A DNA stretch of 64,000 nucleotides, taken from Pseudobdellovibrionaceae bacterium. GTDB lineage: Bacteria; Bdellovibrionota; Bdellovibrionia; Bdellovibrionales; UBA1609. The notes beneath the pieces are model-generated. The model did no database searches and was not told where the DNA came from. It was given only the letters and a program-made list of their open reading frames with translations. Position numbers and translations under genes: made by a program. Shown here in pieces: positions 2,374-44,942 of this stretch. The stretch lies in NCBI GenBank assembly GCA_023898385.1, contig CP060220.1, positions 2,655,683 to 2,719,682 of the forward strand. The letters are read 5' to 3'. Each line of letters starts with the position of its first letter. The stretch's first letter is position 1.

Positions 2374-3867
2374 CTAGACTCCTTCCGCAGCAGAAACCGC
2401 TTCATCAATATCAGAGGGTGGTTGAGTCGACAATACGTCGGCGGGAGAGCCCACATCAGCTGGATCTTGTTTCTTGAGGCCTTTACGCTTTTTTCGTTTT
2501 CGTTTTTTCTTACCAGAAGCGTTGAGCTCAACGGGAGTCTCGTCCGCCGCCGAGGTGACGGTGTCGTCAAGATCATCTTCAACCAAATCTTCGGGTTCAG
2601 CATTTACCGTGGCTGCCTCAAGAGCCAGGGCCTCACCACTGCGAATATTTAAATTCGTTGGCAAACTTTTTTTACTTTTGGCGCCAAGCTTTTCAAGTCG
2701 TTGGGCTTGCACTAAAACGCGGCTTTCTAATCGCGAAAGTCCCTTTTCGTATTCGTCGCGTGCTTTTTCAAGATGTTTTCCTATTCCCACATAGGCATCC
2801 ATAAAATCACAAATTCTTTTGTGCAGCTCTTTACCGGCGTCTGAAATGCGTTCGGCGTTCTCCGCCAGTCGCTCTTCATTCCATCCAAAACGAATAACTT
2901 TCAGCAAGCCGATCAGTGTGGGAGGAGTGGCAATAAGAATTTTCTTTTCAATGGCATATTCCATTAACTCTGGATCAGCTTCTAGAGCCGCGTAAAGAAA
3001 TGATTCGTTAGGAAGAAACATCACGGTAAAGTCTGGGGATTCTTTAAGCAAATCTGAGTAGGCCCGTGAAGATAGTTTTTTAATATGGTCTTTTACGTGG
3101 CGCCCATGGCGAGAGAGTTCTAGGTTTCTCTGTTCGTCTGTGTTGGCATCGAGATAGGCCATAAAGGCATCAATGGGTGTTTTGGCATCAACCACCACGA
3201 ATCGGCCGCCGGGCATTCTGACGGTCATGTCAGGGATTATGCGATCGCCGTCATCGGTGTTTTGAGTGTCTTGAAAGACGACGTCGGAATACTCAGACAT
3301 GCCTGCTAGTTCCACACAGTTTTTCAACTGCACCTCACCCCAGCGGCCTCGAACGTGCGGTCGCTTAAGGGCGTCTTTAAGGGCTCTAGTTTCTTCACTC
3401 AATAACCCGTTGATTTCAGCCACGCGCTTTATTTCTTGTTCCACCGAAGTGAAGGCCCGAACACGATTGGTTTCAATGTGCGTGACCTGTTCATGATATT
3501 TCTTGAGGGCCTCATTAAGCGGCTGAACAAGGTGATTGATCGCGGTTTGGCGTTTTTCAAGATCGCCCTTTGCCACTTGCACTTCTTGTTGCAACATGGT
3601 TTTTGCGAGATCCATAAATTGGCGATTGTTACCCTCTAAAGCGGATGCGGCTAAACTTTTAAACGTGTCGCTCAGTTGGGCCTTTGCGCTTTCGAAGGTT
3701 TTTCTCTCCGCATCGAGGGTCGACTTGGCGGCTTCCAGTTCGGCTTGAGTGCGGGCGAGATCAATTTTTATCTCGGTAAGAAGACGTTGATGACGTCGGT
3801 TAATGTACACAGCGGCCGTCAGGGCGAACAAAAACAAGACTAAAAATACCACGGAAATAGGATCCAT
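2374..3867 (-). CDS. rmuC: DNA recombination protein RmuC
   Basis: N-terminal TM helix, long coiled coil, then an RmuC nuclease-like core (GEVQLKNCVELAGMSEYSDVVFQ..PDMTVRMPGGRFVVVDAKTPIDAF..TVMFLPNESF). Unusual acidic then poly-basic tail (GKKKRKRKKRKGLKK). Confidence 0.85.
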   Translation of the reverse strand: MDPISVVFLVLFLFALTAAVYINRRHQRLLTEIKIDLARTQAELEAAKSTLDAERKTFESAKAQLSDTFKSLAASALEGNNRQFMDLAKTMLQQEVQVAKGDLEKRQTAINHLVQPLNEALKKYHEQVTHIETNRVRAFTSVEQEIKRVAEINGLLSEETRALKDALKRPHVRGRWGEVQLKNCVELAGMSEYSDVVFQDTQNTDDGDRIIPDMTVRMPGGRFVVVDAKTPIDAFMAYLDANTDEQRNLELSRHGRHVKDHIKKLSSRAYSDLLKESPDFTVMFLPNESFLYAALEADPELMEYAIEKKILIATPPTLIGLLKVIRFGWNEERLAENAERISDAGKELHKRICDFMDAYVGIGKHLEKARDEYEKGLSRLESRVLVQAQRLEKLGAKSKKSLPTNLNIRSGEALALEAATVNAEPEDLVEDDLDDTVTSAADETPVELNASGKKKRKRKKRKGLKKQDPADVGSPADVLSTQPPSDIDEAVSAAEGV

Positions 3868-13444: not shown

Positions 13445-13627
13445 CCCGCCTTCGAGAGTGAACAGAGGCCAGCGGGGAAAGTGTGGGGCGCCAGCACCTC
13501 ACGATGTGCATGGCGTATCCGGGTTGCGGCACGCAAGCGACGCAATCCGAAGACGACATGCGGCCACTCGTGCCGTGCTGGCGCCCCACACTTTCCCCGC
13601 TGGCCTCTGTTCACTCTCGAAGGCGGG
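13445..13627. repeat. Foldback element A1: 53-bp perfect inverted arms plus 77-nt imperfect-hairpin core
   Basis: 13445-13497 is the exact reverse complement of 13575-13627. Core 13506-13565 matches 58/60 to the reverse complement of 22099-22158. Confidence 0.9.
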
Positions 13628-22034: not shown

Positions 22035-22221
22035 CACAGACGAAGGCACAGAGACCAAGACGATTGGATGCGGATGCCTGCGTCTGCCTGGCGCTTTCGG
22101 CCGCATGTCGTCTTCGGATTGCGTCACTGGCGTGCCGCAACCCGGATACGCCATGCACGACGCGAACGGCAGACGCAGGCATCCGCATCCAATCGTCTTG
22201 GTCTCTGTGCCTTCGTCTGTG
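22035..22221. repeat. Foldback element A2: 54-bp perfect inverted arms plus 79-nt core (inverted relative to A1)
   Basis: 22035-22088 is the exact reverse complement of 22168-22221. Core 22099-22158 matches the reverse complement of 13506-13565 at 58/60. Arms are unrelated to the A1 arms. Confidence 0.9.
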
Positions 22222-38105: not shown

Positions 38106-38720
38106 TTGATTAGGCGAGTTGTAGTTTCGATATCTATATGTATGGCGGTTTTTTCTTTAGCCAATGGGGCTAATGCGGCCATTTTAGTGGAAGAGGCGGG
38201 GCAATCGCTTTATTCAGCATCCGAAACAAAAATTTCTTCGGATGTCCTCGACTTTAGGTCCCATCGGCGGGTGGGATTTGGTTGGGCCGCAGCAGGAGCA
38301 CTGGGGCTTTTGGGTTTGCAGTTGGAGTTGAACTTCACTCCAGATGTGAGTGTTGTTGGTGGATTCGGAATATCCCGCGGCTTTCAGGCGTTCTCATTTC
38401 AGGTAAAAAGAGTGTTAGCTGGAAAATGGTTTGCTCCTTATGTCGCTGGCGGATTTGCCCGCTGGTACAATGTGGGACACAACGGAGCCATGGTAGATTC
38501 TAGCCCCGACTTTCTTAGCCAAAGATTTTTATCTGAGACCGAGCGTCAGACGGGTCAGTTTGGTGAAAACATGATATTCCCATCGGCGGGTATTCAATAT
38601 CTACAATTATCTGGTGATTGGGCCGGAGCTTCTTTGTATGCCGAGGTGATGATGATGATTGATATGGATGACTTTGTCGCCGCTCCCACAGCCGGTTTGG
38701 GAATGATGTACTACTTTTAA
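38106..38720 (+). CDS. Small outer-membrane beta-barrel protein (hypothetical)
   Basis: Signal peptide ending ANA. Gly/aromatic-rich alternating strands. C-terminal ..GLGMMYYF OMP signature. Confidence 0.55.
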   Translation: MIRRVVVSISICMAVFSLANGANAAILVEEAGQSLYSASETKISSDVLDFRSHRRVGFGWAAAGALGLLGLQLELNFTPDVSVVGGFGISRGFQAFSFQVKRVLAGKWFAPYVAGGFARWYNVGHNGAMVDSSPDFLSQRFLSETERQTGQFGENMIFPSAGIQYLQLSGDWAGASLYAEVMMMIDMDDFVAAPTAGLGMMYYF

Positions 38721-38748
38721 CTGGATCGTATTCGTCGCAGTTTTGGGT

Positions 38749-38783
38749 AAAAAAAAACCCTCGGCAAAGCCGAGGGTTTTTTT
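38749..38783. terminator. Bidirectional rho-independent terminator
   Basis: aaaaaaaaaCCCTCGGCaaaGCCGAGGGttttttt lies between convergent genes. Confidence 0.85.
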
Positions 38784-38801
38784 GTCTTAAGTAGTAATAA
38801 A

Positions 38802-39011
38802 TTACTTCTTACGACGAGCAGTTTTCTTAGCTGCTTTCTTGCGAGTGGCTTTTTTAGCAGCCTTCTTGCGAGTAGCTTTTTTAGCTGTTTTCTTTGCAGC
38901 TTTTTTGCGAGTAGCTTTTTTAGCTGTTTTCTTAGCTGCTTTTTTACGAGTAGCTTTCTTTGCAGTTGTAGTTGTCTTCTTAGCGGCTTTTTTTCTTTTC
39001 TTCGCTGCCAT
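38802..39011 (-). CDS. Histone H1-like lysine/alanine-rich DNA-binding protein (70 aa)
   Basis: ATG 39011 with an AGGAGG RBS. MAAKKRKKAAKKTTTTAKKATRKKAAKKTAKKATRKK.. is built from 39-bp (13-aa) tandem units. Confidence 0.75.
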   Translation of the reverse strand: MAAKKRKKAAKKTTTTAKKATRKKAAKKTAKKATRKKAAKKTAKKATRKKAAKKATRKKAAKKTARRKK

Positions 39012-39151
39012 GTATATCCTCCTGGGATGTGTTCTTTGTTGTTTACCAAAGTTGGTTACATCTAAAAGTGTACCCACGTGACTCTATTCGTCAATCAAAA
39101 ATATTTCTTTAGCTTTTTTTTTGCATGAAGGGTGTTTTGTGGAGGTGAACA

Positions 39152-40744: not shown

Positions 40745-41818
40745 ATGAGAACGTCAATGGTTCCAGAGAAAATGCCTTATCAACTTGAAAAATGGCTCGG
40801 ACAGGGCACGAGCGCTACTGTGTTTCTAGCTAGCCGAGTGGACGAGGTGTCCGGAGCGCGACAGCAGGTGGCCATCAAGTTTCTTAATTCCGAGAAGTTG
40901 GTCGAGGCATGGAGACAAGAGCTTCAAAGTTTGCAACAAGTGGATTCCCCCTATTGCCTCCGCTTGTTGGGATTTGAGCGCTTTTCCGGCAAGCCAGCAA
41001 TCATCTTGGAATATGTAGAGGGATTAAGTCTTCGGCAATTGGCAGAATGGGGGCCCCTATCTGAGGATCTAATGGTAGAAATCATCGCTCAAGCTCAACA
41101 GGGGCTTAAAGACTTAAATCAAAGAGGACTTAATCACGGAGATTTGAGCCCCGCTAATATGATGATAAATACATCGGGGCAGGTGAAACTTTTAGATTTT
41201 GGATTGGCAAACAGTTCACCCCAAGGACGACAATTTACTCCACCCTTCGCGGCCCCTGAAGTTTTATATGGCGAACCTCACAACTTGTATGCCGACTATT
41301 TCAGCCTGGGCCTGGTTATGTCGTTTCTGGGTTTTTCTCAAAAAAAACTTACAGGATTGTTACACCCCGAGCCTCATCGGCGCACGGGTTTAGCCAGCGA
41401 ATCTTGTCAGGAACTGCGTCAGGTCTTGGGAGAACTAGTAAAAAGTAGAATGCAGGAACTTGCAGACAGAGAAGCCAAAACCAAGGTCCAAGAACAGCAA
41501 AGATCTCATCCTTATTACGCCTTTGGAGTGCTTACATCTATTATATATATTTTTTTAGTTATGGTGCCGGGATCGCAGTCCTGGTCCATGGTCGTGCCTG
41601 GCGAAGGCCAGGCACGGCTTTCCGTATATACAAATGAATGGACCGAAGTCTATTTAGATGGCCAGCGTCTTGGTTACTCACCTATTAAAAACCTTGCCAT
41701 CAAACCGGGTGCCCATCGTCTGAATTGGAATCGGAAAAATAACTCTGGCGAGTCTACGCTGACCATTTTGCCCGAAGAGAGTCTAGTTCTGGGCGATCAA
41801 GATTTTGTTGGTTTCTAG
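40745..41818 (+). CDS. Ser/Thr protein kinase with TM helix and PEGA-like C-terminal domain
   Basis: Gly-loop LGQGTSATVF, VAIKF, catalytic loop HGDLSPANMMI (atypical vs HRDLKPxN), DFG, APE. Then a TM helix (YAFGVLTSIIYIFLVMV) and a PEGA-like segment (RLSVYTNEWTEVYLDGQRLGYSP). Confidence 0.8.
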   Translation: MRTSMVPEKMPYQLEKWLGQGTSATVFLASRVDEVSGARQQVAIKFLNSEKLVEAWRQELQSLQQVDSPYCLRLLGFERFSGKPAIILEYVEGLSLRQLAEWGPLSEDLMVEIIAQAQQGLKDLNQRGLNHGDLSPANMMINTSGQVKLLDFGLANSSPQGRQFTPPFAAPEVLYGEPHNLYADYFSLGLVMSFLGFSQKKLTGLLHPEPHRRTGLASESCQELRQVLGELVKSRMQELADREAKTKVQEQQRSHPYYAFGVLTSIIYIFLVMVPGSQSWSMVVPGEGQARLSVYTNEWTEVYLDGQRLGYSPIKNLAIKPGAHRLNWNRKNNSGESTLTILPEESLVLGDQDFVGF

Positions 41819-41883
41819 AATTATGTATTTAATCGAGGCGAAGTTTCACCTCTTTGACTAAGTCCTGGGGTCCACCTATTGTG

Positions 41884-42045
41884 AAGGCACGCTTCGAAGA
41901 AGCCAACCGCCGCGGGAGCCCACCTGCAAAAAGGCTCAGACATTCGTTCGGCAGCAGTGCTCGCTTTTAGCGAGCACTGCACCGATCCGAACTCGCTTTT
42001 TGCAGATGGGCTCCCGCGGCGGTTGGCTTCTTCGAAGCGTGCCTT
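41884..42045. repeat. Foldback element B1: 50-nt arms (49/50 complementary) plus nested-hairpin core
   Basis: 41884-41933 pairs with 41996-42045 with one mismatch. Segment 41928-42009 is 82/82 identical to 42920-43001. The inner hairpin is gcagtgctcgc-tttta-gcgagcactgc. Confidence 0.9.
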
Positions 42046-42057
42046 TAGATTTTACTT

Positions 42058-42888
42058 TTGGAGTTGTTCTTGGATATTTTTCAGTCGATTTTTTTAGGGA
42101 TCGTTCAGGGTCTTACTGAGTTTTTGCCCATTTCTAGTTCTGGGCACTTGGTAATTTTTCAAGAATTGCTAGGCGTGGAGCAGCACAGTATTGCTTTTGA
42201 TGTAGCGGCTCATTTGGGGACCGTCTTGACGGTCATCACGCTCTATTTTGCAACTGTGCGCCAGATGCTTTGGGAGGTGATCACTTATCCTTCTCATCGA
42301 CGGTTCACTCCTGGCATCAAGCTGATGTTATTGATCGTCGTGGGGAGTGTTCCAACAGCCATCATTGGTCTGAGTCTTAAGGATATGTTTGAGTCGTTGT
42401 TTTCTAATTTGTTGGCTGTGGGTATTTTTTTGACAATCACGGGTTTGATTTTGTTTTTAACTCGAAACAAGGCTCGCATTTCACGGCATATTGATGTGCA
42501 TAGCCTCGAAGACGTAAAGGCCATGCACTACTGGCAGGCAGCACTTATTGGTGTGGCGCAAGGTATGGCTATCGCGCCTGGAATTAGTCGTTCGGGATCG
42601 ACCATAGCAGCGGGCTTGGCACTGGGAATCGATCGAAAAACCACGGCGCTTTTTAGTTTTATGTTGTCATTGCCGGCAATTATGGGCGCTGGATTATTGC
42701 AGTTGCGTCATATTACCAGTTGGGATCACCAAGTGTTGTTGAGCTTAGGTGTGGGCTTTTTGACGGCCTATTTATCGGGTTTGATGGGCTTATGGGGAAT
42801 TTTGTATTTTGTAAAAAAAGGCCGACTTGAATATTTTAGTTATTATCTTTGGGTTGTTGGGCCGGCAGTTATATTCTGGAGCCTATGA
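42058..42888 (+). CDS. uppP: Undecaprenyl-diphosphate phosphatase
   Basis: IVQGLTEFLPISSSGHLVI.., ..GISRSGSTI.. are canonical UppP/BacA motifs. TTG start with no in-frame ATG nearby and no obvious SD. Confidence 0.9.
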   Translation: MELFLDIFQSIFLGIVQGLTEFLPISSSGHLVIFQELLGVEQHSIAFDVAAHLGTVLTVITLYFATVRQMLWEVITYPSHRRFTPGIKLMLLIVVGSVPTAIIGLSLKDMFESLFSNLLAVGIFLTITGLILFLTRNKARISRHIDVHSLEDVKAMHYWQAALIGVAQGMAIAPGISRSGSTIAAGLALGIDRKTTALFSFMLSLPAIMGAGLLQLRHITSWDHQVLLSLGVGFLTAYLSGLMGLWGILYFVKKGRLEYFSYYLWVVGPAVIFWSL

Positions 42889-42889
42889 G

Positions 42890-43023
42890 CCACCAGCCGC
42901 CGCGCCGGAACCCATCTGAAAAAAGGCTCAGACATTCGTTCGGCAGCAGTGCTCGCTTTTAGCGAGCACTGCACCGATCCGAACTCGCTTTTTGCAGATG
43001 GATTCTGGCGCGGCGGCTGGCGG
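42890..43023. repeat. Foldback element B2: 36-nt arms (32/36 complementary) plus the same core as B1, same orientation
   Basis: 42890-42925 pairs with 42988-43023. The core is identical to B1. Starts 1 nt after the uppP stop codon. Confidence 0.9.
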
Positions 43024-43076
43024 ATCATGGGCATCCAAAGGGAATCCGATACCTTTTGGATGGGGAGGGGAAAGAT

Positions 43077-43286
43077 ATGGAAACTACAAAATCATGGAAC
43101 TTGCAAAAAGAACAATTGGAAGTTCTCGAACAACTTGTTGAAGAGCTCATGAAAGACGAGCCCTGTGAGGATACGGTCAAGTCGTATATGGGTCAGACAG
43201 GGATTCCCTATACATCTGATCCCATTGAGCGTATTAACGTTGTGTTGAGAGCCTTGAATTTTTCAGAACCAGAGAGAGAAGTTTAG
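43077..43286 (+). CDS. Small acidic hypothetical protein (69 aa)
   Basis: ATG 43077 preceded by GGAGGGG. METTKSWNLQKEQLEVLEQLVEELMKDEP.. Stop lies 2 nt before the next gene. Confidence 0.45.
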   Translation: METTKSWNLQKEQLEVLEQLVEELMKDEPCEDTVKSYMGQTGIPYTSDPIERINVVLRALNFSEPEREV

Positions 43287-43288
43287 TT

Positions 43289-44446
43289 ATGACTGATAGG
43301 GACAATCAAAGTTTAGGATTTGAGACCCGGGCCATTCATGCCGGTCAAAAACCAGATCCCACAACCGGCGCCATTATGACTCCCATTTATTTATCAAGCA
43401 CATTTGTGCAGGAGTCACCCGGCCATCATACAGGATTTGAATACAGCCGCACCGGAAATCCCACTCGCACCGCTTATGAAGCATGTATTGCAAGCCTTGA
43501 AGGTGGACGATTTGGGTTTGCATTCGCTTCAGGTTGTGCCGCTTCAACAACAGTGATGCATATTCTTAAGGCCGGCGACCACGTGGTGGCCTGTGACGAC
43601 ATATATGGGGGAAGCTTTCGGCTTTTTGATAAAATCATTCGAAACAACGGCATCGATTTTAGTTTTGTGGACCTCACCGATGTAAACCAATTTGCCGCAG
43701 CCATTAAGCCTGAGACTCGTCTGGTTTGGATCGAGTCGCCGACAAATCCCATGTTAAAACTCATGGACATCAAAAAATTGTCGGAGATGGCGCACAAACA
43801 CAATATTTTGGTGGCTGTTGATAATACATTTATGAGCCCCTATTTTCAAAAACCATTGAGCCTTGGGGCCGATATAGTGGTTCACTCGGCGACAAAGTTT
43901 ATTAATGGACACAGCGATATAGTAGGCGGCGTGATTGTGACCGATCGTGATGATCTGGCCGAGAAAATCGCCTTTTTGAGTAATTCTATGGGACCGGTAG
44001 CGGCGACATTTGATTCTTATATGTGTTTGCGAAGTTTGAAAACTTTGGCTGTGCGGATGCGAGCGCATCAAGAAAATGCCATAGCCATAGCCCAATTTTT
44101 AGAGGGCCATCCCAAAATAGAAAAAGTCATTTACCCAGGACTGGCCAGTCATCCCCAACATGGTTTAGCTAAAGAGCAGATGTCAGGTTATGGGGGCATG
44201 ATCAGTGCCTATTTAAAGGGAGGATTGTCAGAGGCACGAGCCTTTTTGGAAAAGGTAAAAATCTTCAGCTTGGCGGAGAGTTTAGGCGGAGTGGAGTCCC
44301 TTGTGGAGCACCCTGCGATTATGACCCACGCCAGTGTGCCCGCAGAAACTCGACGGGCCCTGGGCATTGCCGACAACTTTGTGCGATTGAGTGTGGGTAT
44401 TGAGACCCAGGATGACCTGATAAAGGATCTTGAACAGGCACTATGA
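43289..44446 (+). CDS. Cystathionine gamma-synthase/gamma-lyase family PLP enzyme
   Basis: Cys/Met-metabolism PLP family: ..YSRTGNPT.., ..VVHSATKFINGHSD.. (PLP lysine), 385 aa. Confidence 0.9.
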   Translation: MTDRDNQSLGFETRAIHAGQKPDPTTGAIMTPIYLSSTFVQESPGHHTGFEYSRTGNPTRTAYEACIASLEGGRFGFAFASGCAASTTVMHILKAGDHVVACDDIYGGSFRLFDKIIRNNGIDFSFVDLTDVNQFAAAIKPETRLVWIESPTNPMLKLMDIKKLSEMAHKHNILVAVDNTFMSPYFQKPLSLGADIVVHSATKFINGHSDIVGGVIVTDRDDLAEKIAFLSNSMGPVAATFDSYMCLRSLKTLAVRMRAHQENAIAIAQFLEGHPKIEKVIYPGLASHPQHGLAKEQMSGYGGMISAYLKGGLSEARAFLEKVKIFSLAESLGGVESLVEHPAIMTHASVPAETRRALGIADNFVRLSVGIETQDDLIKDLEQAL

Positions 44447-44520: not shown

Positions 44521-44596
<76 letters not shown>

Positions 44597-44601
44597 AAAA
44601 T

Positions 44602-44630
44602 AAAAAAGCCCGAGTGGGCTTTTTTTATTT
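44602..44630 (+). terminator. Rho-independent terminator after tRNA-Phe
   Basis: aaaaaAGCCCgagtGGGCTttttttattttt. Confidence 0.75.
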
Positions 44631-44749
44631 TTGATGGTTTGGCCGAAGCCAAACCATGATGGTCTCCGACCTTCTCCTCGCTTTGCTCGTCGTGCGGTCT
44701 CGACCACAAGCTGCATCAAAATGCTTTGCATTTTGCCGCAGTCTTGAAA

Positions 44750-44772
44750 GGTTCAATTCCGTCCCGAGCCAC
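44750..44772 (+). repeat. Direct repeat of the tRNA-Phe 3' end (att-like scar)
   Basis: ggttcaattccgtcccgagccac is identical (23/23) to 44572-44594 inside the tRNA. It is followed at 44814-44846 by a second, similar terminator hairpin (aaaaAGCCCtttGGGCTttttttg). Confidence 0.85.
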
Positions 44773-44942
44773 TCGTGATCTTTATACAGTACATTTTTTT
44801 GTTTGGGTCACTCAAAAAGCCCTTTGGGCTTTTTTTGTTTTTTTGGATTGAGTTTATTCCCTTTCATTTAACTTATGCCACTAGTGCGATGACGACCCCG
44901 GGGTTGAATTCTTGCGCAAAGTGTCGTAGTTGTTTCAGCCTT

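Follow-up and report, generated by a model that had tools for sequence, protein, structure and literature searches.

Hairpin-forming intergenic repeats with a common core flank a syntenic uppP gene in a Pseudobdellovibrionaceae bacterium

We have analysed a stretch of 64,000 nt from a Pseudobdellovibrionaceae bacterium (GenBank assembly GCA_023898385.1, contig CP060220.1, positions 2,655,683 to 2,719,682 of the forward strand; this whole stretch is referred to below as the window, and its own numbering is used throughout). Within it the gene uppP, which codes for an undecaprenyl-diphosphate phosphatase, is bracketed by two long hairpin-forming elements, B1 and B2, that lie in the same orientation and share an identical core. 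A preliminary description of this DNA had taken uppP to be packaged as a cassette between the two elements. Our comparison with related bacteria does not support a captured cassette, and indicates that uppP is an ancestral gene at a syntenic position with repeats inserted on both sides. B1 and B2 probably belong to one GC-rich intergenic repeat that is non-coding and folds into a hairpin, akin to miniature inverted-repeat transposable elements (MITEs), repetitive extragenic palindromic (REP) sequences or enterobacterial repetitive intergenic consensus (ERIC) sequences and with an unusual build of apex and arms.

Results

Two long hairpins in direct orientation bracket uppP

B1 is a hairpin repeat of 162 nt on the forward strand between a Ser/Thr protein kinase gene and uppP (41884-42045), and its 50-nt arms (41884-41933 and 41996-42045) are 98% complementary around a loop of 62 nt. 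B2, of 152 nt, is found on the same strand directly 3' of uppP (42881-43032); here the arms (42881-42925 and 42988-43032) are 45 nt each and 87% complementary, and the loop is again 62 nt. When folded as RNA, the predicted free energy was -138 kcal/mol for B1 (z = -17.8 relative to dinucleotide shuffles) and -114.9 kcal/mol for B2 (z = -13.5 relative to the same type of control). The end of B1 at 42045 is as previously described; the start of B2, however, had been placed at 42890, and this boundary does not stand, as pairing extends back to 42881, the left arm covering the last two uppP codons together with the stop codon, and homology with B1 begins at about 42893.

The two elements are 93% identical over 108 nt in direct orientation, the homologous portions being approximately 41903-42027 in B1 and 42893-43021 in B2. 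Base-by-base comparison reproduced the earlier finding of two identical 82-bp cores that form direct repeats 992 bp apart (forward strand, 41928-42009 in B1 and 42920-43001 in B2). The core comprises an apical 12-bp hairpin (GCAGTGCTCGCT TTT AGCGAGCACTGC) along with an asymmetric internal loop, and a 34-nt probe from it found no match in 100 shuffled sequences.

The geometry of B1 and B2 as elements in direct orientation around uppP holds, and it can also be seen in independent assemblies. Contig L022, from an independent metagenome-assembled genome (MAG), reads through the left arm of B1 and stops inside the B1 core, while six contigs from different samples (L004-L008 and L014) begin inside B1, contain its right arm and run through uppP. 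B2 is complete in four of these six at 100% identity, the two shortest contigs stopping at the end of the B2 core, and it is present and identical in L004, L005, L006, L014 and L015. Together L022 and L004/L005, which overlap by 50 nt, cover the whole of B1 at 100% identity. The short-read contigs of this organism all break inside B1, with contig ends falling within 41928-42039.

uppP has its own start signals

The only open reading frame (ORF) between B1 and B2 encodes a member of the BacA/UppP family of undecaprenyl-diphosphate phosphatases (272 aa; Pfam BacA, E = 2.8e-72), and we place the gene at 42070-42888 on the forward strand, with a TTG start codon. The longest version of the ORF spans 42058-42888, and the stop codon at 42886-42888 agrees with that given previously. 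The start had been assigned to TTG 42058, with no visible Shine-Dalgarno (SD) sequence; this we revise, because the deposited protein P0001 (272 aa, 100% identical) begins at TTG 42070, a position that aligns with the N-termini of homologues and that has the SD sequence GGAG (42060-42063, forward strand) 6 nt upstream. GGAG forms part of TTTTGGAG, which is shared with the closest element-free relative, L009: the start region there reads TTTTGGAGgatcaaTTGGAC as compared with TTTTGGAGttgttcTTGGAT in the window, giving the common pattern TTTTGGAG-N6-TTGGA. A second close relative also has a TTG start, after AAAGGTGA, and the combination of SD and TTG is kept in the element-free loci L009 and L024. 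From the end of B1 it is 24 nt to the uppP start codon and 14 nt to the SD, and the ribosome-binding site (RBS) is unpaired in the predicted fold. Since the closest element-free relatives have the same arrangement, the TTG start and RBS are ancestral and intact.

One contig of the same organism from the Joint Genome Institute (JGI) metagenomes, L014, has an in-frame 3-nt deletion in uppP (contig positions ~610-620, window ~42531-42536) that removes one GCA, corresponding to one Ala codon; B1 and B2 are unchanged in it.

The uppP locus is syntenic in relatives that lack the elements

For comparison we used eleven uppP loci from relatives (Bdellovibrionales MAGs and metagenome contigs, one of them present in two assemblies), in which UppP is 50-62% identical. 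The gene order in these loci is ABC/MlaE/MlaE/MlaD, three small ORFs, usually a Ser/Thr kinase gene, uppP, an ORF of 64-75 aa and metB, with dus following where the locus extends far enough. No long inverted repeat adjoining uppP was detected in ten of the eleven (detection threshold, arms of at least 14-20 nt, varying by scan; L023 was read directly). The kinase gene and uppP overlap in the relatives or are ~16-30 nt apart, and the spacers beside uppP range from -50 to 62 nt on the upstream side and from 3 to 91 nt on the downstream side, along with one spacer of 304 nt that contains no hairpin. The corresponding spacers in the window are 251 nt upstream, 162 of which are B1, and 188 nt downstream, 144 of which are B2 (its other 8 nt fall within the end of uppP), so that each is lengthened by about 150-160 nt. 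UppP identities parallel those of the neighbouring MetB, with no sign of recent transfer.

The preliminary description had suggested that the kinase-uppP-metB region of relatives be inspected for an empty site or a different gene between the elements. What we found there was uppP itself, in place without adjoining elements in ten of the eleven loci and, in the closest of these, with the same start signals. The comparison shows, at the level of gene order and sequence, that the gene, its neighbours, the TTG start and the SD predate the elements. We conclude that uppP is not a cassette, because it occupies the same slot in eleven relatives, ten of which are element-free, and has its own start signals.

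It had also been proposed that recombination between the cores would excise or delete uppP. This is possible in principle, by a RecA-type event; however, we found no sign of it. Seven assemblies, including the diverged strain with the 3-nt indel in uppP, retain the order B1-uppP-B2 (the two shortest stop inside B2), and no deleted form was found among the contigs that carry the B core.

A second hairpin family has near-identical cores on unrelated arms

The window contains two further hairpin repeats of similar build. In A1 (13445-13627, forward strand), arms of 60 nt with 97% complementarity enclose a loop of 63 nt; the element follows the stop codon of a Tad-type T2SSF gene at a distance of 4 nt. 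A2 (22035-22221, reverse strand) has 54-nt arms that are 100% complementary and lies in the divergent region upstream of an flp pilin gene. Their 60-nt cores are in opposite orientation and agree at 58 of 60 positions. The arms of A1 and A2 show no similarity to each other above shuffled controls (p = 0.2 and 0.16), even though each pair is 97-100% complementary, and in A2 there are ~10 extra nt per side between core and arms.

The same behaviour, over less time, is seen when B1 and B2 are compared. With no change in the 82 positions of the core, the arms differ at two base pairs, both changed in a compensatory manner, and by a symmetric 2-nt indel (CC in the left arm, GG in the right arm). 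What B1 and B2 have in common of each arm is limited to its inner 26 nt, and the outer 12-19 nt cannot be aligned; B1 has at its outside a perfect 19-bp palindrome, which is missing from B2, and next to it a T-rich run (TTTAGATTTTACTTTT) that is likewise not found after B2.

The arms have a GC content of 59-67%, as against 40-46% in the flanking DNA, and we therefore rejected the idea that they are inverted copies of the local flanks, above which they lie by 13-27 GC points. Arm GC follows the host genome (0.45 in a 36%-GC genome, 0.6 in a 46%-GC genome), whereas core GC is steady at 0.58-0.66. Mismatches in the arms were also inspected for a strand bias of G.U versus C.A, as a strand-specific RNA signature, and none was found. 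The A and B hairpins consist of a conserved apex on fast-changing, self-complementary arms, which is the reverse of the build of MITEs and REPINs, where it is the arms that are conserved.

A B-type core recurs beside uppP in a distant relative

The one relative in which a long hairpin adjoins uppP is a Bdellovibrionaceae MAG represented by two assemblies, where a 146-nt B-type hairpin begins 11 nt after the uppP stop codon (L012 6836-6981, equivalent to L013 3918-4063). Its 51-nt arms are 96% complementary. The apex matches the B core in three collinear blocks, AAAAAGGCTCAGRCAT, GCAGTGCTCG and GAACTCGCTTTTTG, with 39 of 40 positions identical; what is kept of the core is these sequence blocks and not its apical hairpin. 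The arms are unrelated to those of B1 and B2, with at best marginal similarity (p = 0.045). This locus lacks the ORF of 64-75 aa that normally separates uppP from metB, and a Y1_Tnp (PF01797) gene is located 2.7 kb downstream of the hairpin.

The L012 organism is not a sister of the window organism (UppP 54% identical; MetB 64% identical, the lowest of the set), and in L023, its own nearest relative, no hairpin is present within 58 nt 3' of uppP. As L012 is non-sister and ten lineages are element-free, two independent gains of a B-type element at uppP are the most parsimonious history. Vertical inheritance of a hairpin 3' of uppP was considered and is less parsimonious, given its absence from the ten lineages that lie between or beside the two. 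The B-type copies known so far, three in number, all adjoin uppP and have the orientation of the gene, L012 having been examined around uppP only, and we regard the association of B-type elements with uppP as suggestive.

Searches for further copies

A 20-mer from B gave three chance matches, in unrelated phyla and with no hairpin, in a genome-contig collection that does not include the source genome, and a 24-mer returned only this same locus from the JGI metagenome contigs. Viral contigs contained no match to the A cores, the B cores or the B signature pattern, and a search of 5.8 billion proteins with all three cores (A, B and L012) translated in six frames found nothing at E <= 10. Profiles of both cores run with nhmmer over 232 kb (the window and relatives) detected no degenerate extra copies. 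Matches of the cores to phages and plasmids were at chance level; the best, 51 nt at 82% inside a Sulfitobacter mqsR gene (E = 4e-3), was judged to be coincidental. The possibility that the arms are captured foreign DNA, in the manner of spacers, was likewise rejected, as the phage and plasmid searches gave no match or chance matches only and no second match was present in the window. Our literature search for such elements in Bdellovibrio-like bacteria found nothing. The preliminary description had also considered that the elements might be independent insertions lying beside many unrelated genes; for B this is not borne out, no other copy having come to light in these searches.

Comparison with known classes of element

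We next compare the elements with known classes. Integron cassettes resemble this locus in having one gene with imperfect palindromes at its boundaries, both pointing the same way. Here, however, the ends of B1 and B2 do not have the attC arrangement R''(RYYYAAC)...R'(GTTRRRY), the nearest GTT (GGTTGGCT, right arm) not fitting GTTRRRY, and there is no cassette array. A Pfam search of 56 of the larger ORFs, covering the 64 kb from end to end, found no IntI-type tyrosine recombinase or other integrase, and no transposase, but housekeeping genes only, with no recombinase apart from RmuC; for the window we therefore concur with the earlier statement that integrase and attC consensus are lacking. 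Furthermore, attC occurs once per cassette, on the 3' side, whereas uppP has an element on both sides, and uppP is not an accessory gene that varies between relatives but a syntenic one with its own RBS. Nor do the elements resemble the ends of a composite transposon, being 152-162 nt long and without an ORF.

The likeness is greater to the Correia elements of Neisseria, to the enterobacterial ERIC sequences (also termed intergenic repeat units, IRU) and to REP sequences and bacterial interspersed mosaic elements (BIMEs). These too are non-coding intergenic sequences, of 100-190 nt, that lie within nucleotides of start or stop codons and form long stem-loops when co-transcribed. They differ in that conserved terminal inverted repeats are the defining feature of those families, with target-site duplications as a further one in MITEs, whereas here it is the apex that is conserved and not the arms: A1 and A2 have unrelated arms, and B1 and B2 share the inner part only. 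A fixed-length target-site duplication was not found either, the sole candidate being CTGGG beside A2, which is offset by 2 nt, with none at B1, B2, A1 or L012.

REPINs and their RAYT (Y1/HUH) transposases offer a further parallel, as REPINs are long hairpins in extragenic space and a Y1_Tnp gene lies near the L012 hairpin. In REPINs, however, the arms are conserved REP sequences around a variable spacer, the converse of what is seen in A and B, and no family of short REP-like palindromes was seen. The window is without a Y1_Tnp homologue, a tblastn search with the Y1_Tnp protein of L012 giving nothing better than E = 0.48.

The elements also differ from intrinsic terminators, which have a GC-rich stem of 5-20 bp, a loop of 3-8 nt and a U-tract. 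B1 and B2, with their 62-nt loops, were not called by a consensus scan, and the ordinary terminators of the window (38751-38783 and 44602-44625) have stems of 10-15 bp. In Rfam no family matched the elements at the gathering threshold, the sub-threshold matches being to generic plant miRNA-precursor hairpins only, and a known RNA family was rejected on this basis; tRNA-Phe alone passed the threshold in the window. Finally, quasipalindrome correction by template switching would explain symmetric indels and paired arm substitutions without selection (PMC8604942, PMC5941160). It is, however, a mutational process and not a class of element, and by itself does not explain unrelated arms on near-identical cores. 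We conclude that the A and B elements are an undescribed variant of the bacterial palindromic intergenic repeats, of conserved-apex and variable-arm design and with a possible affinity for uppP.

Predicted effects on uppP transcripts

The insertions separate uppP from the kinase gene and position stem-loops 14 nt before the SD and across the stop codon. The earlier expectation that a read-through transcript carries stable hairpins on both sides of uppP holds for the predicted RNA folds, which would place structures of between -115 and -138 kcal/mol just before the RBS and at the stop. Through them uppP would be uncoupled from the kinase gene as a more autonomous transcript unit, and the hairpins would be targets of RNase III, obstacles to exonucleases or partial terminators in the way that Correia, ERIC and REP sequences are. 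Promoter creation, and binding or cleavage by RNase III, have been reported for Correia elements (PMC2649163). By analogy, it is likely that the elements act on the ends of the uppP mRNA, through processing, stability or termination.

A weak sigma-70-like match (TTGACT-17-TATTGT, 9 of 12 positions; 41854-41882, forward strand) ends 1 nt before B1. Such sites are not above chance in this region (four found, 4.9 expected), so that this one is only a lead; if it were used as a promoter, B1 would be the 5'-terminal hairpin of the uppP transcript.

Neighbouring features and other observations

The kinase gene upstream of B1 (40745-41818, forward strand) is full length, and its C-terminus aligns with those of the relatives. 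Downstream of B2, a small hairpin of native appearance (CATCCAAAGG...CCTTTTGGATG; 43032-43062, forward strand) lies between the element and the SD of the next ORF. This ORF (43077-43286, forward strand) encodes 69 aa, is conserved but without a Pfam match, and is the syntenic downstream neighbour of uppP, with a length of 64-75 aa in nearly all relatives. It is followed by metB (43289-44446, forward strand; Cys_Met_Meta_PP, E = 1.2e-157).

Beyond metB, in the region 44573-44773, the last 23 nt of the tRNA-Phe gene (GGTTCAATTCCGTCCCGAGCCAC) are repeated at 44751-44773, and the intervening 155 bp are absent from L004, a contig of the same organism; we regard this as an att-like insertion/deletion polymorphism at the 3' end of the tRNA gene. 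Upstream of the kinase gene, an ORF of 110 aa (38717-39049, reverse strand) consists of degenerate 27/12-nt tandem repeats and is rich in Lys and Ala, with a composition like that of histone H1; it has no Pfam match, and a small ORF is found at the same position in relatives. The RmuC-family gene of the window is at 2374-3867 on the reverse strand. In E. coli the RmuC family has been linked to limiting inversions at short inverted repeats.

Discussion

If B1 and B2 are, as we think probable, two copies of an intergenic hairpin repeat in the spacers around an ancestral uppP, then the second copy would have arisen from the first by a short-range copy event, either local transposition or copying mediated by replication or recombination, and the cores would have been copied recently or be held identical by gene conversion. 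The complementarity of the arms would be kept by an arm-to-arm process at the DNA level, which we favour because the symmetric indel and the compensatory changes lie beside an unchanged core, and because the unrelated A arms are complementary within each pair; base-by-base selection is an unlikely cause. There are two candidates for such a process. One is intramolecular template switching between the inverted-repeat arms, a mechanism known to homogenise such arms (PMC8604942, PMC5941160). In the other, a small palindromic core would insert at the apex of a palindrome already present, for which a precedent is that insertion sequence (IS) elements target REP palindromes (PMC1525189). As the three known B-type copies all touch uppP, the B element may have a target preference for this site or may be retained there for its effect on the transcript.

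Several observations weigh against an intergenic repeat of this kind. There is no consistent target-site duplication and no terminal inverted repeat common to A1 and A2, so that the classical definition of a MITE is not satisfied, and the search for a candidate transposase in the window was negative. The repeat family rests on five elements, two B and two A copies being visible in 64 kb, and scans of genome and metagenome contigs gave chance matches or this same locus. In addition, two B copies would flank one gene by chance with a probability of ~0.03 for any gene among the ~62 spacers of the window; this is compounded by the third copy, which adjoins uppP in a different lineage, and purely random insertion predicts such an association poorly.

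An unlikely alternative is that the core alone is mobile. A unit of ~60-95 nt, bounded by short inverted repeats (AAAAAG/CTTTTT for B, GCATG/CATGC for A), would home to the apex of palindromes that were there before it, for example terminators or palindromic repeats of another kind, and the variable arms would be older palindromes of the host or of other families. Near-identical cores on unrelated arms are in favour of such nested insertion, and the extra nucleotides between the A2 core and its arms, the outer palindrome and T-rich run of B1 that B2 lacks, and an arm GC content that follows the host while that of the core does not all fit with it. There is also a precedent for elements that insert into palindromic repeats, since IS elements target REP palindromes (PMC1525189). 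However, palindromes of 45-60 bp without a core are found neither in the 64-kb window nor in ~150 kb from relatives, the arm sequences do not recur within the window, and the stems of the ordinary terminators here measure 10-15 bp.

We think it improbable that B is a dedicated cis-acting element of uppP, either a structured RNA in the 5' or 3' untranslated region or a DNA site bound by protein, that was selected for control of expression (insulation from the kinase operon, mRNA stabilisation or a response to envelope stress) and then duplicated upstream of the gene in this lineage. In favour of such a role, the three B-type copies touch uppP in the orientation of the gene in two non-sister lineages, 39 of 40 positions of the core blocks are conserved where MetB is only 64% identical, and the B core is found nowhere else in the JGI metagenome collection. 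Against it stands the absence of the element from ten relatives, including the nearest ones on both sides, because of which we regard B as dispensable and patchy. Moreover, the L012 core does not keep the apical hairpin, the arm mismatches have no sense-strand G.U bias, the sister family of the same build adjoins pilus genes in either orientation, and the link with uppP is subject to ascertainment bias in L012.

A bolder proposal, to which we give a similarly low weight, is that A and B together represent an undescribed kind of hairpin element. Its conserved apical core would be the heritable or mobile part, spreading between lineages, and the arms of 45-60 bp would be rebuilt or overwritten in each copy by self-templating (fold-back synthesis or arm-to-arm conversion), with B homing to, or being retained at, the flanks of uppP.

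That uppP is a mobile cassette, with the B elements as recombination sites or ends, like those of an integron or a composite transposon, that capture, excise or move the gene, is very improbable and already largely refuted. Direct repeats with an identical 82-bp core do bracket exactly one gene, and B-type elements have been seen only beside uppP. Yet the gene is syntenic in eleven loci, ten of them without adjoining elements, its divergence tracks that of MetB, its native RBS and start are retained, the 64 kb hold neither integrase nor transposase, RYYYAAC/GTTRRRY ends are missing, and the arrangement is kept in seven assemblies. That B1 and B2 are fold-back chimeras in the assembly of the long contig can be dismissed: the short-read contigs do all break inside B1, but independent assemblies jointly span B1 and B2 at 100% identity, which already refutes an artefact for both, and the L012 hairpin is identical in its two assemblies.

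We conclude that uppP in this bacterium is an ordinary housekeeping gene in its syntenic place, with a repeat inserted on either side, and does not represent a new kind of gene cassette. The 50-nt-arm hairpin of B1 breaks every short-read assembly at the locus, and the hairpins probably reshape the transcripts of the operon. The main lead is the architecture of the elements, that is, near-identical cores on unrelated paired arms and symmetric indels between sister copies, together with the recurrence of one core type beside the same gene in two distant lineages. If this is true genome-wide, it would point to palindromic DNA being moved or maintained by a route that lies outside the MITE and REPIN models.

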